A stretch of 63,098 bases of DNA, the filler included, from Asterionella formosa (Eukaryota), in NCBI GenBank assembly GCA_002256025.1. It is 21 parts of 21 records of this genome, joined end to end, with 100 filler letters (N's around TTAATTAATTAA, not from the genome) between each part and the next. Parts side by side here need not be neighbours in the genome. Positions count along the whole stretch, not along the records: positions 6,467 to 7,658 come from NKIB01003769.1; positions 7,759 to 8,950 come from NKIB01003770.1; positions 9,051 to 10,242 come from NKIB01003771.1; positions 10,343 to 11,534 come from NKIB01003772.1; positions 11,635 to 30,866 come from NKIB01003773.1; positions 30,967 to 32,158 come from NKIB01003774.1; positions 32,259 to 33,450 come from NKIB01003775.1; positions 33,551 to 34,742 come from NKIB01003776.1; 13 more parts are not named here. One strand, given 5' to 3'. The position numbers and the translations under genes are program-made. Within the stretch, counting starts at the first letter, position 1; the number at the start of each line of letters is the position of its first letter. Positions 6,533 to 63,098 of this stretch are shown piece by piece. Below the pieces are notes generated by a model. That model searched no databases. It saw only the letters and a list, made by a program, of their open reading frames with translations, and had not been told where the DNA came from.

Positions 6533-7167
6533 TTAATCAGTTCTACCTGTACCGGACAAAATGCCTGCTACCCTGGTGGTACCAGGTACCAGGTACCAGG
6601 ATTCTGTGTACCAGGTACCGCCACTGGACAATCATCGTCCGGTATTGTTTGAGAAACCACTGGACGCACTGGTATACCGGTACCTGTACTACGATAGGAA
6701 TATAAGCGTGTGGATGCAGGAGTACCAGTACCTGGTACCTCCTGGTAAAGGATTTGCACAGATATTTGTCGTAGTCACATGATCATTTTCATATTCTATC
6801 GCCTACTACTACATCCTGGAGTGTCTATCATGTACATACAATTACTATGATACCGGTATATCATTACCAGTACCATAAATGCCAAATTCCTTGATTTTTC
6901 TTGTGATGCCTTTCCATCTGAGGTGGATGGCATCCCACCTACAACAGTGACAGAAGAAAAGTTCTTTGGCTTTCTATATACTTCATTGTGCTGGACCCCC
7001 CAATGTACACTGCCGTGACTGAATTTGACTGATTATACTTAAGGGGGGTCCAGGACAATGAAGAGATTTTCCTTATACTAGTCCTAAGTTAATTTTATTA
7101 GTTCTACAGGATGGCGCGCATTTTTCTAATATTAATTAATATGATCACTGTTTCCGAAAAGTGAAAA

Positions 7168-7658
7168 ATGAGAAAGTTCTTCACCTTGCAAGAAAAGCGC
7201 GACATCGTGGATGAAGCATGGGAACTCCCCGGCATCATCAAGGCTGTTGCACGTAAGTATGGCATTGGCGCCAGCAATATTCGGCGCTGGAAAGCTAACT
7301 TTCATGATTTCGAAAATCGTTATTCTGATGTAGAAGGTTTATTGTCGGATGAGGGGCGTCTCCTTCTGAAAAAACAAACTTTTCATTTAGGCAAGTCGCG
7401 TAGCAATAGTTTAACTGAATTTGCGGCGATTCGTCTCTTGTATGATCAGCTTCGTGGTGATGATCGTGCTTGTTCGATCATGTTGCTTGCTGCTGAGCTG
7501 AAGCGCTTGTCGGGACATGTTGCTAGCTTGAGCGTTATTCAACAGCGTGTAGCTCGTTGGTGCACATCCCAAAACATTGTGTATCGTCGTATCACCCACA
7601 AGGCACAAAACACGCGCTATGTACTGAGTGTCATGCAGGAGTATCTCCAGTACATAAA
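7168..7658 (+). CDS. pogo/Tigger-like (Tc1-mariner superfamily) transposase, N-terminal DNA-binding part, truncated by the contig edge
   Basis: HTH (EKRDIV...VARKYGIGASNIRRWK) followed by a CENP-B/Tc5-type HTH ending RRITHKAQ; TIR-like sequence after TA at 7036-7063. Confidence 0.8.
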
Positions 7659-7758
7659 NNNNNNNNNNNNNNNNNNNNNNNNNNNNNNNNNNNNNNNNNN
7701 NNTTAATTAATTAANNNNNNNNNNNNNNNNNNNNNNNNNNNNNNNNNNNNNNNNNNNN

Positions 7759-7969
7759 CTAGACGCTTCAAATCCTTGGCGGTGTAGGGCCAGTCTGAGC
7801 CGCTTCCATCAAAATCAGTTTCATCAAATGTACAAATGGAGCGGGCTGGAAGAAATGAAAAAGCAATGTGGCGCTGCTGCTGCTGCTGCTGAGGAACAAC
7901 AAAGGAATCTGTGACAATGATAGCTGTAGTCCACAGAAGGAGTCTGGGTGATATGCGTTTATTTGTCAT
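7759..7969 (-). CDS. 5' part of a plastid-targeted protein, probably a class I SAM-dependent methyltransferase
   Basis: Signal peptide ending TDS-FVVP (ASAFAP-like diatom plastid motif), then a transit-like region and WPYTAKDLKRL, which resembles the start of a plastid/cyanobacterial Methyltransf_11 family. Confidence 0.55.
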
Positions 7970-9212
7970 TTTGCTTTACCGGTAACTACCGGTAATGCGG
8001 TAGCTAATATATGTAATGAATAATAGTGAATGACAATTGGCAACATCAAAAAACAAGGCCATGTTGCAGTATTCGATTGATTATTGACGAGGCCATCATT
8101 ACATCCTGATGCCTAACCACTATCTTATTGTTGACTCTTCTAAAGAATACAACAACTATGATCCATCGTTTACTATCAGTTACTGGTATATACCGGTAGT
8201 TGTTCGTAAATCGTATTTGGTAGACTACGACCCCTGACTATGTAAACCCTTTACAATTGGTGTAAGATAAACACCTTGTCGTACCAGGTACCAGTACTGT
8301 ACCACCTGGTACCTGGTGCCTGTATTCGGTATTTGCTTAAATAAACAATTTAATATAGGATAAAGATAGCTAAACGCTTAGCTCACAATCATCGCAACTT
8401 GTTGCTGAAATGCCTGTCACTCCTACCACATGGTTGTATGTACGCCTGGATGATAAGTATTATAGGTTGTTTTGTCTTGTAGGTACAGGTATGTATGCAT
8501 AGTTGCTTGCTGGCGGCAGATTAGGAAGACGCCTGAAGAAAGATTCTTTATACAGTAGGTATTCCATTAGCCAAAATAAACCATCGCATCTATTCTAGAT
8601 TTATAATATTCGGTTATGAATATATGGGTAGTATTGCTCAAGATTGTTGCGCCCTCTCTCACGTCTCGTCCTTGTATCAATCAGTGTTTGCTTGTTGCAC
8701 TTTGTACTTCTGCCTTTTTGTTTTCCTGTTTCGTCTGTACATAGCTTGGAATTCATGCCGTCACTATAATAATTATAAAAAATACAAAGGGAAGCATTTC
8801 TAACTCTCTGGTATCTCTCCTAATCATCGCCTCAGCGTTACATTAGACAACCATTTTGTTGCAGTCGTTGTAAATTCTCTCGAACTGAGCATCACATATT
8901 ACGGAAATTTTCAAAGTATGAAGTATTCCCATTCTCCATTGCTTGTTTTGNNNNNNNNNNNNNNNNNNNNNNNNNNNNNNNNNNNNNNNNNNNNTTAATT
9001 AATTAANNNNNNNNNNNNNNNNNNNNNNNNNNNNNNNNNNNNNNNNNNNNGGTTTGGGATTTATTGTTTTTGTTCTCGGTACCAGGTACCGGTACCTGGT
9101 ACCAGCCATAGCTTCTTCGAAGCGGGACTCACCCTACATGATCGCTCGTTGGAAATATATTTGAGTAGCCATGACAAACTTTAGTCCAACAGACTATTCT
9201 ACAGTACAGGGG

Positions 9213-9591: not shown

Positions 9592-9635
9592 TGCTTTAAA
9601 GCGTTCACTTTTAGGCCACAGGCTACTCAGGAACG

Positions 9636-10242
9636 ATGGGAAGTGACGAAGACACGTCAGTGAGGTTGCCGACATTCGATGGGCAAGATGCTAAATGGCA
9701 CATGTGAAAAGCGAAGTTTCTCGCATACGCGTGCTACAAGAACTTTCAAGGAATACTTAACGGTGACGAACTACCAAGAGGAGAGAAAGACCTAAAGGGC
9801 GATACGATCGTGTTGTCGGATGCTGACGAGAGACGCATCCGAAGGAGCAACACAGTTGCTTACGCAAGTCTGATAATGGCATGCCAGAGTGGGCCATTCG
9901 GACACGTAAATAATGCAAGAAGTGCCGAGTTTCCTAACGGCAATGCTAAAGAAGCATGGGACAAGCTCATTTCTACGTATGAGTCAGGCAACATGGCGAA
10001 TGTCATTGCCTTGTCCCACCAATGGACCAAGTGCACTCTAGGGGAAAACGAGAACCCCGACAGCTGGTATGTGGAGTTGGATCGAATCCGGGAACGATTG
10101 GGCAATACGAGCTCCGCCGTTTCGGATGGTGCCTATGTGGCACACATGATCAACAACCTACCTGAAAGCTACAAGAGTTTGGTAGTAGGAAGGTTCGGCC
10201 TGGCGCGCAACACGCTAACGGTCGAAGAGATTAAGACAGACA
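9636..10242 (+). pseudogene. Copia gag (Retrotran_gag_2/UBN2-like) with a premature stop
   Basis: MGSDEDTSVRLPTFDGQDAKWHM*KAKF with TGA at 9705 where Trp is expected; later AKEAWDKL and MINNLPESYKSLV gag motifs. Confidence 0.85.
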
Positions 10243-11967
10243 NNNNNNNNNNNNNNNNNNNNNNNNNNNNNNNNNNNNNNNNNNNNTTAATTAATTAANN
10301 NNNNNNNNNNNNNNNNNNNNNNNNNNNNNNNNNNNNNNNNNNATCGCCAACTGCTGTTTCACATCGGCCGGCCAGTCAAATATTTGCTGGAAACCAAATG
10401 CAACAAGACACTATCATAATTATAACCTGAATAGAATAAATGTCGTTTGGTATACTTTCTACGGTTGTTGCACCTACATGGACCATGCCACCGGATGTTT
10501 AACGGTTACAATCCTCAGAACGAGCATACCGTCGTTTTCTTCCTTCCCATCATCGCCACTTTCGGGGTTGCACATTCCATAATTGAACGGAAGTTGCAGT
10601 TATTCTACTGTCATATCGTACTTTGTACGTATGTTGAGAATAGATGGTTCGAAGAAAAATGGGTCCTCATGCATCTGCATTTTGCTCGAGATAGCTAAAA
10701 GTGAAAATCGAAAAATCCCAAAAACGGTTTTTTCAAATGTAGTTGCCAATTTTAATCTTTTTATATATAATGTATACATGATTCTGTACCTTAGAACAAG
10801 CCGCACAGTAGGGCAATTGAGCCGGAGCAAATCGTAGGAGTCAAAATGGCCCCGGATAAATTTGAATTATCGATGCAAGTGTTACTAGACAGAGGGAGTA
10901 CCAGGTACACCAGGTACGAGGGTAGAGTGTCCCAGATGACATGTGTACAGCCAACTTGGCATCTTGTCCTTTTGCTTGGTGACGCTGTTTCCTGATAATC
11001 GCCCATACAGACATGATACTTACGAAATTCGCAAATAAGTGTATAAACACAGATGCCAACAGGACAAATGATACAGCATATGTAAAATGCAATGAGAAAA
11101 CAACTACCAGAAGAAATGCCGGTCGTCCGGTATTCTCAGACGATCAATCTTCACTCCAAGCAAGTTCAACATCGAAGTTCTAGATATTCCTTGTTATGCC
11201 CCACAGTTGTCAGGATTCAACAAGTAGGTTCTGGGTAATAATGAGCTTAATGATTAGTTTATCTATATTAGCTCCTAGTCCAAGGGGACTCACAAGGGTC
11301 TTGATGAGAAGGGCATGTACTAGGTGTCAAGAGTCATGCTAGGTGTCATGTTTTAGCCTAGCATTGGTACGTCTATTCTAGAGATAAATCTGTACCAATA
11401 GTTATCACGTAACATATAGCTGCGGGTACTTAATGCAATATGTACTACTACGAGCTACATGCTAGTAACCGTGTGTATAGCATCACGTACTAATCATGAT
11501 CACTCTCGTGTACATGTATATGTACTACGTACGTNNNNNNNNNNNNNNNNNNNNNNNNNNNNNNNNNNNNNNNNNNNNTTAATTAATTAANNNNNNNNNN
11601 NNNNNNNNNNNNNNNNNNNNNNNNNNNNNNNNNNGGGGGGAGAAATGTGGCACGAGCGAATCCTAATGAAACCGACAAGGGCGATAAATAGAGATCCAGA
11701 CTGATTTATCAAGAATGTAACGAAAGGAAGAACCAGAAGGACCGTGTACAGCGTGCCAGTAGTTATAGCAACGATGAATCGACCATGTAAATTGCGATTC
11801 TGAGCCAGTCAGATCACTTTCCACGCTCCACTTTCCCAACTCCAGCAACATAATCATGATGGAACGACCGGGATACTGCCTCCTTCTATCATCTCACTTC
11901 TTTCTTACGAAAAAATACAAAGGGAAGACATCGCTACTCATCAACAGAAAAAAATCTCTCGTAAACC

Positions 11968-13232
11968 ATGCCGCGGCCAAATTATCTCCTCCTCTCCACT
12001 CTCGCGTTAGTAGGACTTGTTCAAGCTCACTCGTCGCTACGTGGACCACATAAAAATGCTTCTGTAGCGGACGACGAGTTCTATGCTAACTCGACTTACA
12101 TCCAACACGTCTTTCGCGCGGTCCAAGAAACCGAATCGTCGCAATTCTTTCAAGTCCCGATGTTTCTTGCATTAAAGTACCTGGACGATGAAGCCGCAAG
12201 CGAGTTAGAGACTTTGAATGCGACGAATAATTTTGTTGATTCGTTTTGCAGAATTGTTCGACAGCAGGTGAGATCTCCTTTGCATCGGTGACGATAATTC
12301 GCCTTGATTGTGAATGCACTAACCATGACCTTTCACACAATCCACAGGCTGGGGGAAGTCAGGTGAACAGGGCTGGGAACGAATTAGGAATCACCATCAC
12401 GACGGCCAATGTTACGAACAATTTGATTAAAAGCTGCATTCGTGACACATATCGAGTATATCGTCCAATACCAACAACAGTTGGACCGGGGTACTTTATT
12501 CTCGAACTTTCATTCGTTCAGGTTGTCACTGCTACTACTCTGAACCCATTCAATCCTTTGAATATGACGATCGTTCGAAAATTGGTAGAAATTGGCTTTG
12601 ATCAAAGCTCGGGAGGCCGTGATATGTTCCTTTCTTTGATGCAAGCAAGTAGTCCTAACTACTTGAACATGAAGAATGTCGTTGTCTTGGAAAAATTCTC
12701 GCAAGCATCACCAACGAAATCTCAAAGTCCATCACCTTTTAATTCATTGATGCCTACCATGCTTTTTTCTCAGATGCCCTCGCCCTCAACCCGTCCAACC
12801 AGCAGCCCTTCTTCAACTCCAACAAATCAGAATACCATGGACGATTCTGTTTCCTCAACGGCATCCTTTTCTAATGAACAAAATGACGATGCAACGAATG
12901 AAACTTTTACAGATTATCCTGTCCCTACCCAGATAACCTCCACTCTCGTTCCTTCGCAATTGCCTAGTCCTTCCAGTCTCCCAACAATTACAACTGTAAC
13001 TGTGGCACCATCAGCAAGTCCGACTATGCAGCCGTCTGAACGTCCGTCTATAATGACATCAACAAATCCTGCCATGGTGACTACATTAACATCGCTGGAA
13101 GGAAATCCTTCAACTGCCAATGACACCGTGTCCCCCCAAAAAATTGCCGGCATTGTAATTGGATTCTTCGTTTGTCTGTGCATTTTTCAATTCCTATGCA
13201 GTTGGTCGACAAGTCATTTGTTGTCTCATTAA
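11968..13232 (+). CDS. Type I membrane / cell-surface protein with S/T/P-rich stalk (2 exons)
   Basis: N-terminal signal peptide; phase-0 intron 12268-12347 (GTGAG..CTAAC..CAG) joins two listed ORFs in frame; PSxxPT repeats; C-terminal TM IAGIVIGFFVCLCIFQFL. Confidence 0.85.
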
Positions 13233-14303
13233 ATGCGAAAAGTGAGGAAATACGATTGTTAAGATAACTATCTTTGTGTTGTCAATAAACTGCTTTATTA
13301 GACCAATCGCCTTTTGATTTTGGATTGACTATAGTATTGAATGAAGCGTCATGTAGATTGCGATATCTACGTTTCCTTCGCCAATTGACCAACAAGAACT
13401 GTAAAGTCCGACAGTGATGATGCCCAGGTTTGTGTATATAGTGATATCATCATATAATACAGGTTTCAGATCACCGCTTTCTTTGAGTCCTCTCTTTGGT
13501 ATTTCTGACGCAGTGTCGGTAAATTCGCTGGAATCCTGCCAAGAAGTACTTTGATATGGTTAGATCATGTCGAAGCCACTTCTTTTGTATCATACCCACA
13601 TTTGATATTCATGTGATTCAATGGCTGACACCCCACATTGCTGGCTATCAGATAAACTTGTTACCGAAACTAATCACAAAAATAAATGACGCCATTCTCA
13701 TTCTTGCATATGATACCCGCATATATTAGGCAACGATACATACGAGAGAAGAAGCAAATCAATGAATTTATGATCACGATATGTGTTGACTGACACTGTG
13801 ACAATGATAAGTATGTACTGGCTGTACTGATCGAAGTTCTGACAAGTTGAAGGGAAGTCATGTCAACATGTGAAGGGGATTTAATTCTTAAAACTGCGAA
13901 ATGCGCAAACCAATCAAGTCGCTCATAGGAATTCTCAAACGTCTGGCCTCCCATCAGAGCGCGCCAGAATTCTCAGCAAGGAAAAATCGCTCAGTGGCAA
14001 CCATCAAATAAATTGTTCTTTTGTTCGTACATACACGCGAACCTTGATGATAGTTCTTCCGATATTTGGGAATCTTGGCAATGAGAATATCGATTTGATT
14101 CGACGGCCCAGAGGACAAAGAGCAGCAATATAGGAGAGATCGACCATTTACCAGTCCATGGAATATACGGGAATGAATACCAGTGAGATGTTTCGTAAAT
14201 CGAAGGTAAAAGGTTCAAATGAGCGTTAACTTCGATGCAAAATGTGACACTTAAAATGGTGGTTAACAGCTACTTTTAATAGCGTAGCATTTTAGCAGCT
14301 AAT

Positions 14304-14897
14304 CTATTCAAGGTCCAAGTCGAATATATCATCTGTGCCTTCCTCATAATCATAGTCACCTTCTTCTTCCAACCCGTGAAATGGTTCAACTGTTGAAATG
14401 TCGTCGTATGCGTTCTCATCATGATCGGGAAACAGCACCCTCTTTTCTGCTCTGGACGCCGTGATTCTATTGAACATCCTCCATGTATCTTTATCGTATT
14501 CTCGTTCCATTACACGAAAACTAGAAGCTGTTAAAGGCGACACGCTCAAGTCCGGGAGCGAACTATGCAATGAGGACCTTGGCGATCTGGGGAGTGATTG
14601 ACCAGAATAGCTGTCGCGAAAACTTGGCGAGACTTTGGATGGAGCATTGTCGTTTAGCGGCAGGTTGAATACCGCCCCTATGAGCCCATCTTGTCCAGAT
14701 GTTATCGCAGAAGGAATTTGCTCATTGTGCAGGTCACCAACCTCGTCAAACTCACGGCGACAATGTACAGGTAGAGACACTGGATTCGCTGATGAACTCA
14801 ATACCGCGGCTATCAGCTCCTCCTTTTCGTGTTCAGCCATCCTCACTGAAAGATTGCTAGAGAAGCTTGATCCGAATTGGCTGCTGATAGGGTTCAT
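14304..14897 (-). CDS. Diatom-type hypothetical protein (YDxxTWRMxxRI motif, acidic tail ending IFDLDLE)
   Basis: Complete 197-aa ATG-to-stop ORF; motif pair recalled from uncharacterised diatom proteins. Confidence 0.8.
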   Translation of the reverse strand: MNPISSQFGSSFSSNLSVRMAEHEKEELIAAVLSSSANPVSLPVHCRREFDEVGDLHNEQIPSAITSGQDGLIGAVFNLPLNDNAPSKVSPSFRDSYSGQSLPRSPRSSLHSSLPDLSVSPLTASSFRVMEREYDKDTWRMFNRITASRAEKRVLFPDHDENAYDDISTVEPFHGLEEEGDYDYEEGTDDIFDLDLE

Positions 14898-16285
14898 TTC
14901 TGATAGTAATGTACTTCAATTCGTGGTGGTGTTGATAGAGCCAAAATATAATTTAAGTCGTTAATGTAGCAGAACCTACTAAATTGTGCGAGATTCTTAC
15001 AATCCCATTTAATCCGTGAAGCAATGAAAGGAGTGTTCAATCCAACGAGATTTCAACGGTAGATTCATTACCAAGATTCAGTGGCTGGTAAACTCAGATG
15101 CGCGAGACGTGTACCGGCATTATCGGCATGTGATACGGTACCAGGTACTATGGGAAAATTGTTTGGCTTTCTGTTTTCTTCTGTGCTCAAACTGTACATA
15201 GTCAGCAGTTCTGTGTATTTTAGGTACCTGGTACCAGGTCCTTCTTTCAATAGGACTCTCGCAAGTGCAGAAGAATCACTGGCAACAGCACATAGCAGTA
15301 CACAACGAAACGAAGGGTACCTGGTACCTTTACTATTGAGTACGATTATTGTGAATACGAGAGAGAACTGACTCCTTTTCTTGCTCGCTCTATGTAAATA
15401 TTCCAAATGATGTATCAAGACCATGAAGCGTGTGGTCGAGAATTTACTTCATTTACTTACTACATGGTACCAGTCACAGTGTAAAGTGAAAATTTACTTA
15501 CTACATGGTACCAGTCACAGTGTAAAGTGAAAAGATTCGTTCAATGACGACAAGTACGCATGCAAGCAATATTCAACGTTGTAGTTTCGACGAGTGAAAA
15601 GTTCTAGAAGTGTCACCTAAGTACGCATGCAAGCAATATTCAATAATGAATTCATTACATAGGCAACTAACAATGATAGTGATTATTGTGCACGATTGAT
15701 GACATATATCGTGCACTACTTTCTGATGCCTACTGGACCTTGTACAGTATATCTTCAAGCTGCGGTCATTTTGCTTAAATAAATAATTTTATATGAAAAG
15801 CTAACTATTTAGCTTCAACACAATTACCGTACCGGCGGAACTTGCTGCTACCTGGAGTTGCGATCATTTTGCTGAAATTGATAACGTGACGCAGGACAGG
15901 CGTTTATTTACATAGACACCGACATCAATTCTATCTTTAAAATCTTCTGGTGTATATATGCCTGGTGATCAACACCTAGACCTACTACCGGTAGGTTTTA
16001 TGCTAATGTTATTATTCAGAATAGGGAAACATCAAGAAAACACAACAATGACAAGGGCAATAGAGGTGTGGCCTGAAGGAAAAGTAAGCAAAAGAAAGCA
16101 AATCTCGCTTATGTTGCTTTATTCTCTCCAAACTCAAAATCATTCTCCTTTTCTGGCCGAAGTGATGAAAACAAATCATCTTAATCAATGGTTTTCAGAG
16201 TCATTGGGATTGAAAATTCGTTACTGCCAACATCATCATAGCAACAACCCGATACACAAAGTGGTCTGAATCTTGATGTTAAGTA

Positions 16286-17020
16286 CCATAAAACCTGGTG
16301 TCTCATATCCCCCCAGATACCTGTACCCCCCTTTGTACATCTGGCACAACACTCCCAAAAATTTCATGTCCTCAGAAAAATAACCACATATTCTTTGTTC
16401 TCCAGATATTTGTTATCATATTTGTACTATAATTGTATTCTTCCTGCTCACCATCATGAAACAGAAATCAACAACAGCCAACACGAGTGATGGCGATATC
16501 CTTGGCCTGAGATTTATGTCAACAGTCGAAGCTGTTAGTTGCAAGCTTATTGTGGCGTGATTATCAAGCTGAATGCTACATGCTCAGGCAGTCCTGGCCT
16601 TGATATTGTCGGCTTGCCGGAAGTGTTCAAAAATCATTCATCTGCTGCTTCATGATGCAGAAATATTTCGTGCATGTCATAGTAGTTCTGGCTGGTCCAA
16701 TAATCATATAAGTGATGTGGCTGGTTGGCTTATATTAGCTAATATCCATCACGATCCAACTTGTGGAACCTACACAAATTAATACCGTTTGTAGCATTAG
16801 GGAAAATGTGTACACACTCTAGGAATTGCTATTGATGCCATCACGAAACTCAGGTGTGCTGGTACACCAAAAATAGATTCTTTTGATCATAGAAACCGTT
16901 TGAGCCTACAACAATATATCTTTTAATGTTGCTACAAAGGTCCTATGTCTTGTACTCACCTCTAAGCAAAATCAGTGGTAGCTGTGTACATTGAGGGGTA
17001 CAAGACACCTGGTTTTACGG
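16286..17020. mobile_element. Non-autonomous pogo/Tc2-like MITE, copy 1 (735 bp)
   Basis: TA|CCATAAAACCTGGTGTCTC...AAGACACCTGGTTTTACGG|TA; imperfect TIRs of about 25 bp, TA TSD; full-length inverted homolog at 24645-25443. Confidence 0.92.
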
Positions 17021-17520
17021 TATGTTGTTATCCTTCATCAATGGGACCACTGGAACTTGAGAGGACAGTACATCAACATGATTATTAATTCTAATTGGAC
17101 TCTTTTTGAATTCAAAGTGAATTATCTAACATGAAGTAGTAGTATTTGTTGAATACATGAGCTTCATTGTGAATCCTTTTGTGCAACTCGTTCTCTAAGT
17201 CAACACCAAAGTATACAATAGGTGTTAGTCAAATCACTCATTATTGAGTTCTGATATACCGGTTTATGATATCACATACATCTGTATTGACGCGCGGGAT
17301 CGCTCACCAGGTATGTAGGAGTAGCTGGGAGTACCGGTTACCTGGTACCTTGCTCGACAAACTCGATGCTTTTTCTGTCATGCCACGATAAGTCCACTAT
17401 AATATTTTGATTCTCAGTTGAAGGTATTGAGCCGTGGTTGCATCTTCCAACACAGCTAGACCTACTGCCTCGATCCGAGAAGAGAATAACAAAAGATAAC
17501 CTGTTTCACGAGTATTCAAG

Positions 17521-18342
17521 ATGGACGAACGAGAAACGAAGCGAAGTCGAGAAGAAAGCTGCTGTTTCCTCGACGACATTCTTCCAATCTGTCTCGTTTG
17601 CAGCAACACATTTTCAAGCTCGCCACAAGACGCTCATGCGCCTATTCAGAGCACCAAGTGCGGTCATACCTTTTGCCGTTCCTGCATCTTGTACTGCCAC
17701 GCGATGGAGGTACAGAACCGTGCCAGGGTAAAAACGGTCCCTTGCATGATGTGTCGGGCAAAAGGCGCGTTTGTGGCAGAACAGCTTCACGTCAACCAGT
17801 CGTTGATCGACGCCATTGAACGCTTCAAGGAAGCCAAACAGCGTTTTGACGAAAAAAAAAAGCCACCGACGCGTGACCCAAAATCCAAGGTACTTCATGT
17901 GGAGGAACTTACTCCGATTGGATGGAAAGTAGCTGAAGAATCATGGGGATTCCTGGGTCCATCTCAAGTGAGTCCTCCAAGTGCTGGAGTAGTGTCCAGA
18001 CCCTCCGTTGAAGGACAGCGAGCTATATCGTTCATTTATCAAAAATCACAATCAATGAAAGGTATCCCTCGTTCAACGAACTTGAGTGACGACACAGAAT
18101 TATTCTACCCGACTACTGCCAGTGATTTTCCTCTTTGGTCATCTACCTCCCCTTCCTCGACTGAGCGTGCACAATTACTCACAGATACGGACAGAGACCA
18201 AGAATGGAGTTCTATCCAAGCGGTGCCAACTCAGAGGCTCCATTCCCCACTCCTCCTTCCCCTCTGTTCATATGGCCAGAGCAAGAGTCGTGGTCAACAG
18301 ACACAGACAGTACCCGTCCGCTCCTTTCAGAACGGACACTAG
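17521..18342 (+). CDS. RING-HC (C3HC4) zinc-finger protein; 3' structure uncertain
   Basis: CLVC-x-CGHTFCRSC-x-CMMC; downstream sequence to about 19250 may be further exons or decayed coding DNA. Confidence 0.75.
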   Translation: MDERETKRSREESCCFLDDILPICLVCSNTFSSSPQDAHAPIQSTKCGHTFCRSCILYCHAMEVQNRARVKTVPCMMCRAKGAFVAEQLHVNQSLIDAIERFKEAKQRFDEKKKPPTRDPKSKVLHVEELTPIGWKVAEESWGFLGPSQVSPPSAGVVSRPSVEGQRAISFIYQKSQSMKGIPRSTNLSDDTELFYPTTASDFPLWSSTSPSSTERAQLLTDTDRDQEWSSIQAVPTQRLHSPLLLPLCSYGQSKSRGQQTQTVPVRSFQNGH

Positions 18343-20189: not shown

Positions 20190-20788
20190 CAACGGAGCAA
20201 TCGCCTGGAGGAGGTTTGGGATGTGGTTAGTCCAAATGTCCGACGCGACAATGGCCAGATTCCATGCTTGCGCGCACGTGGTATCAGTATACTGTAGGGG
20301 ATGGAATTTCGATTCACACGAGACCGTTGTATGCTGCCGATGCTTCATGCTGGTGCAGCTTGAACACGTCGAGCGTCAATCATCTCGTTCATACTTAGTC
20401 TCGCATTCGGTATCTCACGCAGAGAGTTACAAAGTAATTAAACATACCATTTTATAGGATCAATTGGAAGTATCTATTGTTTGTTCAGCCTTCGAGAGGC
20501 ACCGACGAGTGGAAAAAATATTGTGTTGCCGAATGCTGTGTAATGCGATACCAGTATTGTCGTCCCGTAGTAAATAACATGATCCTTTACCAAGTACTGG
20601 TACAGGTACCAGGTACCAGACAGGAGACTATTATCTACCGGTACCGGTAGTTTACATGATTTGATTTTATATGCCGGTATATACACAGTACATACAGGGT
20701 ACCAGGTACCTATCAGCTACTATTTACCACTCTATGATATTATTTTAAAGGCCTCTTTTGACCAAACATACATGCAACAGGATTGAAC

Positions 20789-25443: not shown

Positions 25444-25532
25444 TATATAAATGTGTCCCGGTAGTATGTTTTAGAGCACCCTGGTACTGGTAGGCAAGTC
25501 TTTCATTCTGCTACCTGGTAGTCTACCAGGGG

Positions 25533-47088: not shown

Positions 47089-47288
47089 AGTACGTTTGGC
47101 ATTATAACTTCAAGAACAGTAGTTACAGTCCAACTATGGCCACATACAGTGCTCAATCTACATTGTCAAATCAATAATTTATATTCATGTACCTTTCGGG
47201 AGTGGAAATTGAGCGCTTCTCTTCTTCAGAAACTCATCCGCCAGGAACATTGCAATGATTGTGCCAATCGCAAAACCAACTTATCAAT

Positions 47289-50200: not shown

Positions 50201-52688
50201 GTCGGTCCATACAACATCGCTGCCTTTCTGACCATTGCCTAATGCAAACGAGATTTCATCAGTGTTACTGGAGGTGAAGCATCCAGACAAAAGAGATCTG
50301 AGGCCTATCTTCCTGCGTCTTAGACGATCTGCAACTCTCTCATCACTTACGCACATACTGTCAACAAAATGGATTAGAAACGCAATTGAATACAAGCTAT
50401 TGTATCTAGATGCATTGGCAATTACTTACTCGCTCAACATGCTGTACAGAATTGACCGCTCCATTGACATCTGGCGCAGCACACTGGTAAACACAGTATC
50501 CTTTCGTCTCCCATCCGATTGTTCACTTTCCAACCCTTCTTCGCTTGCAATACTCGATGCAGCAGACTTGGCAAGAAATGACTCTCGCACATAGTACATG
50601 TTGTAGGCGTCTTGACTCCCTTTTGCAAATCTACCTTTCTTTTTTCCGCCGGCTCCATCGAAAGAAATTACACTGCAATTTGGGCCATCTTCCAAGATTT
50701 TCACAAGTTCGTCATTAAACTCAAACCACTTTCCTGTTTGCCAATCCATGGCTTCAGCGACATAGTGCCCATGATACGCTGAGTTGCCACGATGCTGCAT
50801 GACAGCACACAACACGTACTTGGTTGGGTTCATCTTATCCTTGGAGGGAACCTGCAAAGTTTGACTCAACATGACCCCGTCTGTGAGTTTCTTTTTCACA
50901 AATTTTTCTTTGTCAAAGATGTAGCGGCAAAGCTGAAGGTTCAGCACAGGAGGGAGAGCACAAAACACTACTTGCCGAGTTGCGTTCTGCTTGCTCTTGC
51001 ATTGGTCACAAAAATATTGATTGTCAACCGTGAGATCCTCAGGGTAAAGATACCTATCTAAGCAGTACTGCATGTCAGTGTCTTTCATAGCGTCGAGTGC
51101 CTCTTCAAGCTTCTGCTGTCCAGAATTTGTAGGCATTTCTGCCGCTCGATGAGCGATTGGCAAATTCAGATCCATGAAATCCTCCTTTCGCTGCTTTGAA
51201 TGCCTACATTTCAAACAAATAGTTTTGTAAGCCATGCTGCCCTGGAAGAGACTTGGGAGCAGATTACCTAAAGCTTCTTGGTCTTTGTTACCACTGGCAC
51301 ATTTTTGAAAGGACTCGTGCATTCTTTCAAACAAGAGCCTTGCGAACTCGTTTGGGTCTTGCATTTCGTCATTTTTTAGACCAAGAGCCTCAGAGAGCTC
51401 GTCAGTAGATATGGATCGTTGAGCTCCATGTACCATGCGAGCGAGCAATAGCTGTAACTTTTCGAGAACGTTTTCCATAGGGTTCTTCAGTGACGAATTT
51501 GGTCGCCAAGAGAAAATGCCTTCAAGGAAGATTGTATTTCGTGCTAGGCACTGTAGTTGTGTGTTCAGATAGCACGTTGCTCCGAGGTTTATCATCCCAG
51601 GAGGTATCGCCAAGGCGAGCTTGTCATCGGCATGTAGTTCGATTTGCCTGAGAGGGTTTGAAAACACCATGGTATTGTTCCATCGCCGAACACGATGTAT
51701 GTATTCCGCTGCTGTCATGTCACTCTTACTCTTGATAACCGATTCAAAGTATGATATGATGGGTCCAATGTCAACACTCTCTACCCTCCGCAGATCATTT
51801 AATTGTGCCTGGGTCTCCCTTGAGTAAATCGACAATTCGCTGTCTGGATCCAGCACTTCGTCATCTATCGGAAGTTCCATAGTATACACATTCGATAAAT
51901 TATCGAGGGGCAATGCAACCTCTATCTTTGGTGATGGATTCTTTCCAGTATCTTCGACATCCGCTTGACGTTTGCTTTTTCGTAGTATTTCCGGTCGCTC
52001 ATTGTCGGTGTCTATAACTTCAACGATTTCACAATTTTTGATCCCTTCCTGTTCAGACGGTATCTCGTCATTTGAAAAAAACCCATAATTGTTGCCTTTG
52101 GAATGATTGGAAGGTGTTGACTGTGCAGCACATTTGTTGGTACTGTCCAGCAGGGGGAGCACCCTCTTTGCAGCCTCGCCGAGAAAGTCGTCCATCGCAC
52201 CGCCGATCGATACCAAACAAAACTGAAAACGGCAAGGTAAGATAAGCGGCCAGAACAGTCTGAAAATTGCAACATGCACTCACCGGATTGGAATCACAAT
52301 AGCTGCTGCATCCTTCAGGTCGTCGTCCTAGAGCGTTTCGAATCTGCATCGTTGTCTTTCTGTTCTTTCGTCGTCGCTGTTCCCTTTGCCTAATCGTATC
52401 TACTGTCCATGCTCGTACGGAAGGGCAGCTACTATGACAAACACGAGCAACCACGTCGTCTTCATGTTCGGCTGAAACTTCGCGGCAGATATTCCACGGA
52501 GAATCTCCAGCAGTCGTTGCGTTCTCGATGCCGCGATACGGAAAATTAATTTCATACTTTGCAATCTGAAGGAAGCGATCCCATGAAGCGTTTGATGGCT
52601 GCGCCTTCTTCTTGGTAATAGCTTGTACCATCGGTTGACTGATGGAAGATCCAACAGTGCTTTCTTGGGTCGCTCGTGTCCTTCGCAT
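47289..52688 (-). CDS. Ubiquitin carboxyl-terminal hydrolase (USP/C19), USP48/UBP26-like (4 exons)
   Basis: Cys box GMINLGATCYLN, QDPNEF, His box HRGNSAYHGHY and WFEFND; N-terminal CDSNPFCL; CxH motifs; introns 52223-52283, about 50357-50429 and about 49529-49601. Confidence 0.92.
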
Positions 52689-52949
52689 GCTGATGGTCGA
52701 CAGAAAGTGGGGAGCTGTTTGTTAATGTTCGGCAAACAAGGCGAGGAGTGTGATGGACTACGATCATGATTAATAAATATATTTATATATAGATTTCACT
52801 GGGTGCTAATTGCCAAGAATAGTAGGTACCAGGGTGAACCAGGGTACTTCCGGTACTCTACGAATAAGACAGCTAATATGATGGTCGTCATATACCGGCA
52901 TACAGCACCGTGTATACCGGTATGTACCAGTGAGGGATGATGCTTGCTG

Positions 52950-53290
52950 ACGGAGTACTAGTCGTGTGCTGAAATCTTTAGTCCTAATTCTCCTGTTCAA
53001 CAAATTCGATTGTAAGTGCCCGCTTCCAGGCTTTCAATATGATCGGTCAATGTGAATTTACTAACTCCATTTGATTGGCCTGATCTGCAGGGCATTGCAA
53101 ACCTAGCTAGTACGCTGGCCACACTTGATCACAAGTATCTTTTTTGGGGGTGTTTGCCGGTACTGTATCCACTACCATATGCCTAGTAGTACCAGTGCTG
53201 CGATAATGCACTTTGCCTTGAAAGAATGGACAAAGTGCATTGCTTTTTCGCTGATGATGATTCCGGGTTTGCATTGCGAATTAGCATTCC
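52950..53290 (-). mobile_element. Remnant of the Kolobok-like transposase C-terminal region, without the LTR insertion
   Basis: HHQRKSNALCPFFQGKVH aligns with DHQRESNILYAFFEGKVH at about 41790-41850 and continues across the LTR insertion site. Confidence 0.75.
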
Positions 53291-53336
53291 GGATTCTTGT
53301 ATGAGCAATGGTTGCTTTGATGTGCATGGTACAAAA

Positions 53337-54074
53337 GGGTCGTTCTTATCATTCCGAATTTGCTGTATCATTTCCGGGTTGCGGGCAAAAAGTGACGGTT
53401 GGTATCAAAACACGGTATCAGCAACAGTAACTTGATGGTATCAATTTTGTATCATTGATACAAAATTGATACCTTTTTTTGCCCCCTCCAAAAACGGTAT
53501 CAGTGATACTGACATATTTACGCGGGTATCATTTCCGTTGTCACTAATAAAATAACCGAAAATAAGCCTGCAAGGCAAGGCACCAGTGATAATATTAATG
53601 GCATATACTATTCCTTCAATTTTATGCTGGCTGCGTACATCGTCCAAGCAACACCATTGATACAATTATACAGCACCAGACAGAAAGTTATACTTGGCGA
53701 TCTTATAACTCCCAAGTGTTTTTGTGTATTTGTTACTACAGATCAGTCATTTGAATCTCCCTGAAGATACTACAAGCAAGGCAAATGGAACCGCATAGTA
53801 TGGAACCAGTCACACAAACGCAAACAACAACTGTTGATGTGGAGACCACTGTATATCAAGATTGACCCACCACCTTCAACGATACAATGCAGTCTCTTGC
53901 TACAGATACTGAAGTTGATCGATTTGTTGACTCCCTCATACTTCCTGATGACTTTGTGCTTGATAGTGAAAGGACAAAGGTGATTTTCATCAAAGGTGTT
54001 GCAATGAAGCAGATCTCGGTCAAGGTTCTCCGAAAAATTTGCGTCAGATACAAAGTTTCTGGATACAAAAATGC
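53337..54074 (+). mobile_element. Probable left end of a DNA transposon (GTATCA-box array plus the start of the ORF seen at 59327)
   Basis: About ten GTATCA/TGATAC boxes, a 37-bp palindrome at 53437-53473, and an ORF nearly identical to the start of the 59327 contig. Confidence 0.5.
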
Positions 54075-55961: not shown

Positions 55962-56644
55962 CTATTTGCATATAAAAGAATGCAAATAGGGCATATACAC
56001 TGAAGCAATTTGGTTCTGACCAACTTTGCTAGCACGAAAGTAGTAGAGCAATACAATCATTTGGAGAATTAATTTCCTCTCACCTTTTTCTTCATAACGA
56101 AATTTGTCTTTGATTCTCGGAAATGATCCCTGAAGGCATCGCATTCCCCATTCCGACAGCTGTTGGATGGAGGTGGCTTGGCGATTCATACCAAATCTTT
56201 GTCGAGGATTACCATTTGCATCAACATTGTTTTGATGCGATTTCAACATTGCATTTGATTTTTTAGTAATGCAAATGCTGAATCCACAACTACTTTTTTG
56301 CCTGTATCCCTATAAACTTTTTCAATCTGATCATAGATCGATGACCAAATTGCCATGGTGGAGTCATGTAGAACACCAGGTGCATTGAAATATGAGCAGC
56401 GAATTTTTCCATCAGGCGAAAAAAGAAACAAGTTTGTCACATAGTGTTCATGGGTCCATCCATTGTAGAAGTTGTTCTGCTGTGTTTCATTTCCAGCCCA
56501 TTGCAGGGTCAGTTTCAGACCATCTGTTGCTCCCCAAAAATTTGTTATAAGTGGGTATTTCTGATTGATCATGGTTGCAAACAAGGTGGCTTCGTCTGCA
56601 GTAGGCAGTCTCACAACGGCATCTTCATGTGTCAGCAGTACTTT
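55962..56644 (-). pseudogene. PIF/Harbinger (DDE_Tnp_4) transposase C-terminal half with one frameshift
   Basis: WGATDGLK, FYNGW, PGVLHDS, VVVDSAF and QQLSEWGM..LQGSFPRIK; the frame is restored by one extra A in the run near 56260. Confidence 0.88.
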
Positions 56645-56900: not shown

Positions 56901-58984
56901 TGATGTATGCATAGGCAACCAAACAAATGGTCTAGTTCCATTTCAATCCTGTTTTAAGATTTGAAGATCAAAATTTGAAGTCGGTTGGAGTTTATCGATA
57001 TCCCAATGAGTCAGTTTCTTTAACAGACCATTTCATATAGAATGGTGCTGGAGGACTTCAGCCATAACAGCATATTTCCGTATCTGTATAGTTAGCTAGG
57101 AGCTTGAATGTTCCATGTGTAAACATAATCCTTGATAGGTGTATCAAAATATAACAAATCATTGTGCAAATGTTCTGTGCATATCATTATAGGAATGCAT
57201 GACATGCAGAAAAACACTGATATATCCACCATACAGACAGGACATGGTATTTGTAAATTATCCGTCATAAAATAATCAGCTGGACAAATGAGCAAACTCG
57301 CAGAAGGTACTACGACCAGGTACTTCTGTTGCAAGATACAAGCTGACGGATTAAATTTTGAGAGCATCATGCTGAGTACTGGCAAGGGAAGAAAAGGTGG
57401 GATCATACCTGCTATGCATGGTATATATTAATTATAAATGTTCGATTTACAACGAAATGTCCTGAAGTGCAATCCATTCATAAGTTAAAGATCAGGACCC
57501 ACCGCGATCAAATAATATTCATCTTTTGTCATGCATATACAACGCAGCCACCAATGCTTGGGTTGCTTATGACATGAGAATGAAATGCAATTAAGCTTAT
57601 GCATTCATAGGCAAAGAAAGAATAAGACCGGAATCAGGTCTTGAGATGTGCATATGGAATGATATATTGAATCTACCTTTGCATTTTAAAATATCCCGTG
57701 TTAAAATAGCGGTGATATCCAACCTGTAATTATCCTGTAAATAACAAAAGTTATTCAGGTAATGATTGACGTAAGACATATTCAATGTGCTGTCGCTCAT
57801 AAATATATATATATATATATATGTATATTATTAAAATCATAGCATTGTTGCTTTTGTCGCACATACTTCTGTTAAGGCGATATGTTCAGCATTCTGCTGG
57901 TTTTTTTATTAGGCACATCGGCCACTAACTGACCANNNNNNNNNNNNNNNNNNNNNNNNNNNNNNNNNNNNNNNNNNNNTTAATTAATTAANNNNNNNNN
58001 NNNNNNNNNNNNNNNNNNNNNNNNNNNNNNNNNNNATATTGGACCGAAATCTTCAGCATCAACATCCATTTCTACTTTCTCAATTGAAGTAGATGATGAA
58101 CCTTTGTTTACCTGTTCCCTCAATCATCCAATTTTGGCAGACAATATTCAATATCCTCTGGAATATTACTCAATACATGATAGACAATTGCTGGATATAC
58201 AATTGATTCTCAATCAAACAACTCATCTCATTCTCAATCAACAAACCAAACACATCTGTTAAATTTTCCCTCTATCAATTTTCATCATATACATTTCATG
58301 TATTTTGTAAAGAATCCAGGAGATACTTGACGTATTGTTATTCCTACATCACTATCGAATCCTATGGTACAGTTACTTTTCAACAAACTATGCATACAAC
58401 GGAACGAATTAATATCCATTACATCAAACCTTTTCAAAGGTAAAAGGTTTTCCCTTGGTGTGGGAGAGTGAGCGATCTTGCGCATCAATACAGATGTATA
58501 TAGGGTTAGTGTTATATCATATATGTATCAGAACTCAATAATGAGAGAACTCGACTAACCCTCATTGTATACTTTGGTGTCGACTTGGAGAACGAGTTAC
58601 ACACAAGGATTAACAAATAAGCTCATATATTCAACAAATACTACTACTTCTAGTTAGATACTTCACCAGGTACCGTACCAGGGTACGTGTATGCGGGAAT
58701 AGACCATTTTATGTATTTAGAGTACCTAGTACTTAATATGGAGTCACCACGAGTACATATACTATAGCACTATATTACAGTAAATAGAGGACCAAGTCTT
58801 TTATTATAGGGGTGTGTGTATATGTCTAATATACATATACCCGAAATGAAGTGAAAACAATCAATATCTAGCTAATGAAAAATAGTGAAAAAATAATGTA
58901 GCTACAGTTGTATGAAATCATGCATCTGTGTAATAATAACCTAAACACATACTAGCTGTGTATGACCACCAGTGTGATGATCAG

Positions 58985-59226
58985 CAGATACATCGAAAAC
59001 TTTGCTTGATAGAAATCGGTCTTAAATTGGTGGAGAAAGATGGTTTGGGATACTGGTCATGCAGCAGTTCACAAGAACCGAAATTTTACACACATCTTGA
59101 TGACCAATTTGATCAATATATGTTCGTTCTGAGAATATCGATATTCGAAATGACGGCACTGATCTCGTGTACATCGAATACTATTCTGGATATAAATCGG
59201 CCTTTTATTGGTGGAGAAAGATGGTT
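58985..59226 (+). repeat. Tandem repeat family B, start of another array
   Basis: Aligns with the units at 38820-39050. Confidence 0.9.
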
Positions 59227-60517: not shown

Positions 60518-60617
60518 NNNNNNNNNNNNNNNNNNNNNNNNNNNNNNNNNNNNNNNNNNNNTTAATTAATTAANNNNNNNNNNNNNNNNNNNNNNNNNNN
60601 NNNNNNNNNNNNNNNNN

Positions 60618-61683
60618 AAACTTCCCCAGGTAAGCACACCATTGTTTCCAGTTTCATATGCCAAAGTGCCCATCATTGTAAACTGACTATCATAATGCTC
60701 ACTCACACCTTCATTGTTGTCATCTTCTTCCTCCTCGACAATTTTATATGAATTATGAATGAGATTACTGGGAAATAACAAGGCAAAGCTGCCATCAGCA
60801 TTCAAGAGTTGGGGTTTAGTAGGGCCACAATGGTCAGGTGTCAATGTAGACACCATGGTTGCAGTTGATGGCTGAAAGAGGGACGAACCAGAAGTAGTAT
60901 ACATACTAGTAGTACTAGACTTAACGTCTAGTTTAGCACTTTGTTTTAGTTCATTCTTCACTTGGTTAACAGATATCCAAGGGAAAATGCATTGCTTAGC
61001 TGATACTGTCCTAGAAATAGCACCATAAGGCATTTTTCCACCATTCTTAGCCTTCTTAGCTTATAGCTCCCTAATCACATTGTTAAGACAAAACTGAACA
61101 CTGACCAACTCTTCAGGAGACAATTTCTTTCGAGGCAAGGCATTGCCTTGTCGAGGCGCTTTCGAGGTCATGGTGTTGGTGTTGTGATGGGTGATGGGTG
61201 ATTGTTGTATGTTTGCATTTAATTTTTGTACTCATAATTCGGGCGCACCAGGAATTCCTATTTGACGTTTTCCATTAATGAAATTATCTCTTTATTATGG
61301 CGCACGAGCGAAAGCGCAATGCCGTCGTAGTCATATTAAATAAATTTTAGAGGATACTAAATTAGTTTTCTAGAGGAGGAATATTCTCATACCTGCATAC
61401 GTATATAAAAGGTGATGCTTGCTCAATCGAGTAAACGTGAAAATATCCAATTTTCGCAATTTCACGTCGACAGCAACCTTTGGGCGATAATACCTAATTA
61501 ACAATGTACACAATGCAACAATACAAGTACGGAAGTATTTACTCGCTATATAAATCTGAACAACTCGTTCGTGACAATAAATAGCGTATCTTGTAAACTA
61601 AGTTCAAACCGTGCGTTTACTCCGTTTAGCGGTGGCTTACAGTTCAAAAGTCGCCGTAGCGGTGGCTTACAGTTTTTAAGTGG
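60618..61683 (-). mobile_element. 5' end of a TA-targeting DNA transposon (terminus CCACTTAAAAACTG), copy 1
   Basis: Reverse complement of 62033-63098 with a few SNPs; flanks diverge just beyond TA; ORF from 61171 has an in-frame TAA. Confidence 0.8.
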
Positions 61684-62032
61684 TACCTGGTAAAAGAAAA
61701 TGCATACATGGGTCGCATTCATTTAATGTACCTGGTGGTGGTACCGGTACCGGGGCGGAGGATGTGATTGTTTTATTACTGAAAAGTGTATTGGTACATA
61801 GTATTAGTNNNNNNNNNNNNNNNNNNNNNNNNNNNNNNNNNNNNNNNNNNNNTTAATTAATTAANNNNNNNNNNNNNNNNNNNNNNNNNNNNNNNNNNNN
61901 NNNNNNNNTAGAAGGAACCACCAGTACCAGGGTACCGGTACCAGGTACCATGTACATTGGCTATTACATACAAATGTACCAGGTATCGGTACCCTTGTGC
62001 CCGATACAGTACCGGTACCAGGTACCAGGGTA

Positions 62033-63098
62033 CCACTTAAAAACTGTAAGCCACCGCTACGGCGACTTTTGAACTGTAAGCCACCGCTAAACGGAGTAAA
62101 CGCACGGTTTGAACTTAGTTTACAAGATACGCTATTTATTGTCACGAACGAGTTGTTCAGATTTATATAGCGAGTAAATACTTCCGTACTTGTATTGTTG
62201 CATTGTGTACATTGTTAATTAGGTATTATCGCCCAAAGGTTGCTGTCGACGTGAAATTGCGAAAATTGGATATTTTCACGTTTACTCGATTGAGCAAGCA
62301 TCACCTTTTATATACGTATGCAGGTATGAGAATATTCCTCCTCTAGAAAACTAATTTAGTATCCTCTAAAATTTATTTAATATGACTACGACGGCATTGC
62401 GCTTTCGCTCGTGCGCCATAATAAAGAGATAATTTCATTAATGGAAAACGTCAAATAGGAATTCCTGGTGCGCCCGAATTATGAGTACAAAAATTAAATG
62501 CAAACATACAACAATCACCCATCACCCATCACAACACCAACACCATGACCTCGAAAGCGCCTCGACAAGGCAATGCCTTGCCTCGAAAGAAATTGTCTCC
62601 TGAAGAGTTGGTCAGTGTTCAGTTTTGTCTTAACAATGTGATTAGGGAGCTATAAGCTAAGAAGGCTAAGAATGGTGGAAAAATGCCTTATGGTGCTATT
62701 TCTAGGACAGTATCAGCTAAGCAATGCATTTTCCCTTGGATAGCTGTTAACCAAGTGAAGAAGGAACTAAAACAAAGTGCTAAACTAGAAGTTAAGTCTA
62801 GTACTACTAGTATGTATACTACTTCTGGTTCGTCCCTCTTTCAGCCATCAACTGCAACCATGGTGTCTACATTGACACCTGACCATTGTGGCCCTACTAA
62901 ACCCCAACTCTTGAATGCTGATGGCAGCTTTGCCTTGTTATTTCCCAGTAATCTCATTCATAATTCATATAAAATTGTCGAGGAGGAAGAAGATGACAAC
63001 AATGAAGGTGTGAGTGAGCATTATGATAGTCAGTTTACAATGATGGGCACTTTGGCATATGAAACTGGAAACAATGGTGTGCTTACCTGGGGAAGTTT
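62033..63098 (+). mobile_element. 5' end of the same transposon, copy 2; ORF from 62545 with TAA at 62653 (probable pogo-like transposase N-terminus)
   Basis: TA|CCACTTAAAAAC; subterminal direct repeat AACTGTAAGCCACCGCTA twice; NGGKMPYGAISRTV...FPWI motif. Confidence 0.8.

Follow-up and report, generated by a model that had tools for sequence, protein, structure and literature searches.

Tc1, Mos1 and Sleeping Beauty are excised with a stagger of 2-3 bases, and the scar of Sleeping Beauty reads TAC(A/T)GTA. For mariner/Stowaway elements, TA-keeping footprints are established; in the excerpted text of the cited account, excision keeps the target duplication together with short pieces of the inverted repeats (PMC4561436). 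Here, we report that a stretch of 63,098 nucleotides from the diatom Asterionella formosa (GenBank assembly GCA_002256025.1; hereafter the window, i.e., the whole stretch of DNA that was analysed) carries dense tracts of the units TACCGGTA and TACCWGGTA, i.e., TA-CCGG-TA and TA-CC(A/T)GG-TA, and that the interiors of these units equal the tips of TA-flanked repeats in the same DNA. We tentatively read the units, with somewhat less than even confidence, as remnants of element tips: TA-targeting cut-and-paste elements would have inserted near gene starts and later been excised; the elements involved were most likely of Tc1/mariner/pogo type, mostly miniature transposable elements with inverted repeats (MITEs). 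Please note that the window is not one locus: 21 unplaced contigs of diatom DNA are joined by N44-TTAATTAATTAA-N44 linkers, and parts that adjoin in the window are not adjacent in the genome. Nineteen contigs are ~1.19 kb long and two are 19,232 bp each (11635-30866 and 34843-54074); public runs in which the stretch occurs bear the labels of algae, freshwater or lake metagenomes, and we take the contigs to be a fragmentary assembly of a freshwater diatom.

The enrichment of both units is strong. Against 100 dinucleotide-preserving shuffles of the window, TACCWGGTA occurs 26 times where 0.31 is expected, the largest count in any shuffle being 3, and TACCGGTA, which tops the enrichment of all 8-mers at ~78-fold, occurs 24 times where 0.25 is expected; in neither case did a single shuffle reach the observed count. 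A preliminary description of this DNA had listed dense clusters of these motifs, and every one of them is present (Table 1), but units also occur singly outside the listed places (5034, 5289, 5527, 6851, 7977, 7987, 8191, 10899, 15986, 25512, 31467, 32289, 32837, 36145, 41703, 43611 and 58676). When all spacers between two TAs were scanned, the signals were CCGG (24 vs 0.25 expected), CCWGG (26 vs 0.32) and CCAGGG (6 vs 0.02), with weaker ones for CAGG, CCAG and GC; TA-GC-TA is found 25 times in the window, where 9.6 are expected. The central base of the 9-mer is W in 26 cases and S in two. Among the eight ten-mers of the form TACCNNGGTA, CCAGGG or CCCTGG accounts for six and CCATGG for one; TACCATGGTA, which the preliminary description had proposed as the filled-in product of CCA overhangs, belongs to these eight and was seen only once in the window, at 43919.

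The arrangement of the units is that of mixed chains rather than of uniform arrays. By search definition, all 60 units have the form TA-x-TA; they fall into 47 chains, 37 of them single, seven double and three triple. Adjacent units that share a TA differ in type in 11 of 13 pairs and are identical in the other two, where random mixing predicts ~74% differing and 26% identical pairs. A simple microsatellite, i.e., identical units placed head to tail, was considered and rejected; because the neighbors are mixed and most units stand alone, pure slippage is excluded as the main source of the tracts. The flanks of single TACCGGTA sites are without consensus, and a self-BLAST found no homology among tract flanks, which means that the tracts did not arise as copies of a single larger repeat. 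The distance histogram has no clear peak that would speak for unit groups spaced ~90 bp apart.

Three TA-flanked repeat families with CC tips are present in the window, i.e., MITE-740, MITE-200 and the repeat at 60618-61683, and the bases left between the TAs of the units are the same as the tips of MITE-740 and MITE-200, and as the CCA tip of the third family, whose boundary is uncertain. The TA/CCG element that the preliminary description had placed at 24645 (a slash marks the border of an element) is real: it is the second copy of MITE-740, which has TA on both sides in two of two copies, the tips CCG...CGG, and ends that read TA/CCGTAAAACC...GGTTTTACGG/TA or, at greater length, TA/CCGTAAAACCTGGTGTCTC...GAGACACCWGGTTTTACGG/TA. 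The tract core ACCWGGT lies in the MITE-740 inverted repeat at bases 9-15, 8 bases from the tip (16294-16300, 17007-17013 and 24652-24658). In DNA run X1 the summed depth of this family is ~400 times that of single-copy bins, which suggests a high-copy family, summed depth not being the same as copy number. MITE-200 has the tips CCTGG...CCAGG (TA/CCTGGTGAAG...CTCACCAGG/TA) and starts directly with CCTGGTG; TA plus its first 6 bases make up 8 of the 9 letters of the motif. Copy 1 of MITE-200 ends ~26 bp from the tract at 17331, and the end of copy 2 (58670) adjoins a chain at TA; what looks like a third copy, likewise with its end on a chain, is seen in an RNA-library contig, which departs from the window at 17313 and goes on with CCTGGTACTGG. 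The two CCA elements described earlier at 61683 and 62033 do sit in tracts, but they are one 1,076-bp sequence seen twice, 99.6% identical and oppositely oriented. Each copy runs into a tract, and only a single kind of end can be seen. The boundary could not be fixed: because GGTACC is common to both junctions, the border may be TA/CCAC, GTAC/CAC or GGTACC/AC. The element ends of MITE-200 copy 2 and of both 61683/62033 copies meet chains at TA.

If the units are scars, an element would insert at TA and duplicate it, and excision would keep both TAs plus a few tip bases. The tip overhangs would then anneal, CCG/CGG giving CCGG, and CCTGG/CCAGG giving CCWGG with the central mismatch repaired to A or T. 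Each scar would supply two new TAs in an element-end-like context, further insertions could land there so that chains grow, and slippage and small deletions may then shift the chains by 6-7 bp steps. Such a history would explain the TA anchoring, the match to the tips, the joining of element ends to chains in register, the A/T centre, the mixed neighbors and the patchy distribution. We count in its favor that perfect units greatly outnumber single-mismatch variants, each of which is far rarer, and that single units are anchored on TA in unrelated contexts; the A/T centre and the prevalence of differing adjacent pairs fit independent events.

Several observations weigh against this reading. One-sided scars, i.e., TA, three tip bases and TA, show no enrichment in the window (TACCRTA 12 vs 10.6 expected), and TACCTAGGTA does not occur in the window at all. 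None of the four ends of MITE-740, the most repeated CC-tipped family, lies on a tract. To obtain CCWGG from CCTGG/CCAGG, full annealing would need an unusual overhang with a 5-base stagger, and otherwise the annealing would have to be offset; we know of no excision stagger of 5 bases. Of the 47 chains, 15 have GG at the left edge and 18 have CC at the right edge, which makes GGTACC (56 in the window vs 5.9 expected under an order-1 model) itself a real unit and obliges the scar reading to add an assumption of target preference; it must assume a strong preference for promoter edges and GG-TA-CC targets. The element-rich DNA (~6 kb) holds only two units, at 15986 and 25512.

The comparison of repeat copies bears on the same question. 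Our indel catalogue of repeat copies at least 75% identical comprises 121 alignment rows, often with several rows for the same event, and is a very small sample; it holds no insertion of exactly CCGGTA or CCWGGTA (6 or 7 bp) at a TA, nor was any allele or paralog pair found with TA in one member and TACCGGTA or TACCWGGTA in the other. The stacked footprints put forward in the preliminary description are supported in part, by the CC-tipped TA elements, the exact CCTGG...CCAGG tip (of MITE-200, a family that this description did not include), the ends on chains, the W centre, the mixed neighbors and the micro-insertions at TA, but not by a before/after pair. One candidate pair, TACCGGTT at 17252-17265 in MITE-200 copy 1 against CATA in copy 2, was set aside as unclear because the difference is 4 bp and not 6 bp, the flanks are mismatched and the stretch is TA-rich (CCGG at 17259). 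In run X1, the joints from which MITE-740 is absent have the appearance of sites that the element never occupied. Micro-insertions at TA do occur: the change of TA to TAGCTA noted before in one satellite unit is confirmed (4-bp insertion at 496-499, in the unit at 478-528, one of nine), and a second, independent one is located at 16736-16739 in MITE-740 copy A relative to copy B, so that two of roughly a dozen distinct 4-bp indel events between repeat copies are of this kind. The 12-bp insert at 25805-25816, previously offered as footprint support, is present in one of three repeat copies, but the other two read GACTG or GATTG, so that the insert is not TA-anchored and counts, if anything, on the other side; it is a perfect palindrome, (ACT)2(AGT)2 in alignment orientation.

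Strain differences were sought in four runs, compared as assembled contigs, from which transcript starts and rare alleles are not readable. Run X3 DNA contigs over the tract-bearing intervals 13558-15450 and 19316-22216 each show 7 gap letters and 4 base changes relative to the window, and of the tract-free X3 pieces four have no gap and one has a single gap letter; a unit-sized change inside the tracts is a likely candidate behind the 7-letter gaps. A 22-letter difference in 17190-19033 is common to an RNA contig starting at 17482 and hence lies outside the tract. In X1 and X3, a joint at 30530-30665 skips 134 bp (30531-30664) between two parts of the largest tract, at about single-copy depth, the short sides being 20 letters long; an allele or a look-alike locus may account for it.

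The motif was also followed into other diatom-like DNA. A metagenome scan with an alignment of the ubiquitin hydrolase gene gave 38 loci (295 kb) at 35-54% protein identity, i.e., no close relative is among them, and none of the 38 carries the motif upstream of this gene. TACCWGGTA is enriched in two, L022 (16 vs 0.09 expected) and L023 (8 vs 0.05), neither of which has TACCGGTA; as they overlap at 99.99% identity without indels, they represent one organism. The other 36 loci, ten of them 11.6-21 kb long, are not enriched (TACCGGTA 3 vs ~1.2, TACCWGGTA 1). The L022/L023 units are intergenic and upstream of plus-strand open reading frames (ORFs). L022 further shows TA-C-TA 163 times (31 expected), TA-GC-TA 34 times (4) and TA-CCG-TA 11 times (1.05), and its intergenic DNA (4440-5290 and 5470-5680) is almost wholly palindromic low complexity of TAC, TAG and TAGC, i.e., (TAC)n(TAG)n and (TAGC)n; an inverted-repeat search in L022 returned low-complexity matches only. 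The TAGC-type palindromes CTAGCTAG (10 vs 1.4) and TAGCTAGCTA (9 vs 0.1) are enriched in the other 36 loci as well. TA-rich palindromic low complexity is thus widespread in diatom-like intergenic DNA, and the CC(W)GG flavor patchy. Two side observations belong here: L022 has a 21-bp tandem repeat, GTCTTTTGTGTTCGGCTCCCG, in ~4 copies at ~4900-4995, and the 12-bp palindromic insert of the window resembles the sequence that fills the L022 intergenic DNA.

The position of the units relative to genes is promoter-like, which likewise speaks against scars and in favor of a regulatory origin. For nine genes on the two long contigs, chosen for a plausible ATG and for support from Pfam or RNA contigs, a unit lies at most 300 bp upstream of the ATG in seven (242, 174, 259, 81, 142, 189 and 227 bp), where a unit is found in 10% of all 300-bp windows and in 17% of non-coding ones (binomial P 3.9e-6 and 9.2e-5, respectively); as two of the genes, G4 and G5, share one tract, this amounts to six of eight independent regions. 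None of the 28 units on the long contigs falls within the coding span (16.1 kb), and the three convergent 3' intergenic regions, 13232-14304, 18342-19521 and 23089-23745, contain neither units nor elements. In the unrelated locus L022, four plus-strand ORFs have their nearest TACCWGGTA 227, 541, 245 and 185 bp upstream of the start. All this would be expected of homotypic clusters of a palindromic cis-regulatory site (ACCGGT, ACCWGGT or GGTACC) for a putative dimeric host factor near the transcription start, with TA-targeting elements merely landing in the same open promoter DNA and slippage altering the number of sites; we hold this to be almost as probable as scars. The cores of SBP, RFX, Grainyhead, Myb and Zelda-like factors look similar, but none of these is put forward here as the binding protein. 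A regulatory site also suits the sharpness of the palindrome, whose inner C/G positions are steadier than the outer T/A positions in the mismatch scan. RNA-library contigs that begin at 17384, 20811 and 30432, 34 to ~100 bp downstream of tracts, are a weak hint in the same direction; a contig from a poly-A RNA library covers 14285-15313 with two unit groups included, and RNA contigs from other loci also match tracts. Since this RNA evidence consists of assembled contigs, it places tract sequence in RNA libraries and does not give transcript starts. An ORF at 15068-15424 (minus strand), which spans tracts, was rejected as coding on account of its low-complexity translation without a Pfam match and treated as untranslated leader. 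A binding site leaves unexplained why three TA-flanked families start with CC, one of them exactly with CCWGG, and why element ends join chains in register at TA; the match between unit and tip would then be a coincidence, for which we allow a few per cent. The overlap of units through shared TAs is awkward for independent binding sites, the motif is not enriched in 36 of the 38 metagenome loci, no paper on such a diatom motif was found in the literature search, and single units also occur in short repeat-like contigs without a recognisable gene. The retained elements (16286, 17117 and 24645) share 5' intergenic regions with tracts, which counts, together with the lack of both in the convergent 3' regions, in favor of scars.

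Two further explanations were weighed. The tracts could have arisen independently of transposons, by palindromic micro-insertion and microsatellite dynamics, i.e., fragile DNA near promoters would gain and extend short palindromes by error-prone repair of breaks or by slippage prone to hairpins, with TACC(W)GGTA being the flavor of this lineage; we hold this to be improbable. It would accommodate the perfect 12-base palindrome inserted at a site without TA, the L022 intergenic DNA built of such palindromes and the TAGC-type words of the other 36 loci, the 7 gap letters in each tract-spanning X3 contig against 0-1 in tract-free pieces, and the array at 6580-6600, which is homogeneous. Slippage does not, however, extend to the single chains, which stand in non-repetitive context, or to a set of adjacent pairs so rarely identical, and the enrichment of palindromes is word-specific and not general: as a class, palindromic 8-mers number 330 where 254 are expected, the specific enriched words being TACCGGTA, GGTACC, ACCGGT and TAGCTA. 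Nor does repair offer a reason for the match to element tips. In the other explanation, the tracts would be arrays of pseudo-ends, i.e., inverted-repeat cores for putative binding by a transposase or by a domesticated pogo/CENP-B-like protein, and thus subterminal parts of larger elements or landing pads instead of scars. ACCWGGT in the MITE-740 inverted repeat, the MITE-200 tip CCTGGTG, the form TACCWGGTG (seven occurrences, five of them within tracts) and the tracts upstream of a pogo-like transposase ORF (~430 bp) and of a copia gag ORF all point this way. We nevertheless regard pseudo-ends as very improbable, as no element boundaries that enclose a tract could be defined, the tracts on the long contigs lie in unique promoter DNA between single-copy genes, and tract flanks share no homology.

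Stacked excision scars thus stay our tentative preference over clusters of a regulatory site, and these two remain close. A mixed history, in which scars were later used as binding sites, is possible. A bolder extension, which we think rather unlikely, is that in some diatoms TA-targeting miniature elements home to their own excision scars and so build self-extending, hypermutable palindromic tracts at the nucleosome-free promoter edge; transposon traffic, and not point mutation, would then rewrite much of the promoter-proximal sequence, and expression might be tuned between strains in 6-7 bp steps. If the units are scars, the genome would be a natural record of thousands of cut-and-paste events, and footprints a major self-reinforcing source of promoter sequence and strain variation. 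If they are binding-site clusters, a freshwater diatom lineage would have in this motif a very common promoter element, useful for annotation and expression tools, and why the tips of mobile elements copy it would become a question. Contig ends hold five tracts, and under either of these two readings the tracts explain the assembly breaks at these places.

The remaining features of the window are as follows. A fourth repeat (6467-6540, 40640-40698, 43810-43898 and 31840-31948) contains TTAACCCTA...TAGGGTT, which we take to resemble piggyBac ends, and ends ...AAATGCAGGAACCTTAA; tract motifs lie 20-60 bp from its end in three of four copies. Of the pogo-like transposase, the window holds the DNA-binding N-terminus, and no catalytic domain was seen there; just upstream of its ORF, at 6979-7065, is a hairpin-like unit of 85 bp whose inverted arms measure 21 bp (CTTCATTGTGCTGGACCCCCC / GGGGGGTCCAGGACAATGAAG). 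The ORFs of the long contigs with Pfam matches encode a RING finger, a clathrin-adaptor small chain, DUF6824, gelsolin repeats, an RSN1/OSCA-type channel and a ubiquitin hydrolase. In a protein search the named relatives of the hydrolase are in diatoms only (Nitzschia, Attheya, Chaetoceros), the best unnamed match having 59% identity across 99% of the query; the closest relatives in the protein search, at 59-69%, are not among the 38 metagenome loci. A Pfam scan of 83 further open frames gave only gelsolin, the Harbinger-type DDE domain and one weak low-complexity match. The gelsolin-repeat gene has an 88-bp intron (29647-29734), skipped in contigs of RNA runs X9 and X10. A satellite of ~194-bp units, 80-95% identical, forms several arrays (1-528, 33551-34233 and 36427-37464), and a second tandem repeat of ~190-bp units, 72-85% identical, is found at 37776-39142 and 58989-59226. 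The contig at 30967-32158 is repeat-rich, with tandem pieces, e.g., GAGTACCGGGTAGGTTTACCCGTATACCGGAATCCGTACGGAGTAGGAATACC, and many near-units (TACCGGG, TACCCGTA). At 15452-15530 there is a direct duplication of 41 bp, ATTTACTTACTACATGGTACCAGTCACAGTGTAAAGTGAAA, each copy with GGTACC.

Table 1. Unit tracts, TA-flanked repeats and transposon genes of the window (a slash marks the border of an element).
Feature	Position	Strand	Description
Tract	6549-6740		3 tandem CCAGG units and others; ~430-620 bp upstream of the pogo-like transposase ORF
Tract	8281-8320		includes the compound unit TA-CCACCTGG-TA
Tract	9078-9104		TA-CCAGG-TA-CCGG-TA-CCTGG-TA; 27 bp from contig start; ~600 bp upstream of the copia gag ORF
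Tract	15111-15330		unit groups at 15139, 15225 and 15318; 242-421 bp upstream of ATG 14897 (minus-strand gene)
Tract	17331-17350		small; 174 bp upstream of ATG 17521 (RING-finger gene); ~26 bp from a MITE-200 end
Tract	20599-20711		between divergent genes, clathrin-adaptor-like (ATG 20348, minus) and DUF6824 (ATG 20789, plus)
Tract	30505-30866		largest; begins 142 bp upstream of ATG 30364 (gelsolin-repeat gene); reaches contig end
Tract	35789-35812		contains TA-CCTGG-TA-CCACCTGG-TA; no gene assigned
Tract	43917-43932		GGTACCATGGTACC; 189 bp upstream of ATG 44116 (RSN1/OSCA-type channel gene); after repeat ending ...AAATGCAGGAACCTTAA
Tract	52825-52930		loose; 137-240 bp upstream of ATG 52688 (ubiquitin hydrolase gene)
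Chain	58669-58686		TA-CCCTGG-TA-CGG-TA (minus-strand reading); adjoins intact tip of MITE-200 copy 2
Tract	61684-61755		beside element end at 61683
Tract	61919-62032		beside like element end at 62033
MITE-740 copy A	16286-17020	+	TA/CCATAAAACCTGGTGTCTC...GAGACACCTGGTTTTACGG/TA; inverted repeat contains ACCWGGT
MITE-740 copy B	24645-25442	-	TA on both sides
MITE-200 copy 1	17117-17311	+	right tip ...GATCGCTCACCAGG/TA intact, left tip degenerate
MITE-200 copy 2	58468-58670	-	intact tip TA/CCTGGTGAAGTATC, adjoins tract chain
Repeat	60618-61683	+	end ...CAGTTTTTAAGTGG/TACC; two copies of CTGTAAGCCACCGCTA near end
Repeat, second copy of the 60618-61683 end	62033-63098	-	99.6% over 1,076 bp
Pogo-like transposase, N-terminal part	7169-7656	+	CENP-B_N E 1.3e-4, HTH_Tnp_1 E 4.9e-4; cut by contig end
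PIF/Harbinger-type transposase fragment	56246-56644	-	DDE_Tnp_4 E 4.3e-10
Copia gag ORF	9708-10241		

How the tracts stand beside described systems depends on which of their properties is compared. In the open-access literature that we searched, no description was found of stacked scars, of diatom mariner footprints or of this motif in diatoms; matches to the motif words and to diatom core promoters were primers, cloning sites or work on other subjects. Homotypic clusters of transcription-factor sites in protist promoters, such as the oomycete core promoter elements in the portions of PMC3599244 available, resemble the tracts in being a short sharp motif a few hundred bases upstream of most genes that is absent from coding and 3' regions; relative to those portions, the tract units differ in that they overlap through their TAs, come in 8-, 9- and 10-base variants and equal transposon tips, and their motif is absent from most of the other diatom-like loci sampled. 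The MITE-associated microsatellites of PMC8449440, as its excerpted text presents them, also consist of short tandem units beside MITE ends and share with the tracts candidate unit-sized length changes between strains, whereas tract neighbors mostly differ in type and most units are single, which is why the arrays are not simple slippage products. With Tc1/mariner and Stowaway footprints the tracts share the TA brackets and inner bases that equal the tips of TA-duplicating elements in the same DNA, and the A/T ambiguity of the Sleeping Beauty scar parallels the central W of the units. The known scars are single and scattered, in contrast to tract units that are 80-100-fold enriched, chained by shared TAs and placed upstream of genes, and the window shows neither an excess of the usual one-sided scars nor a before/after pair among its repeat copies. 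Chained, promoter-concentrated footprints at such an enrichment would be new among the TA-keeping footprints established for mariner/Stowaway elements.

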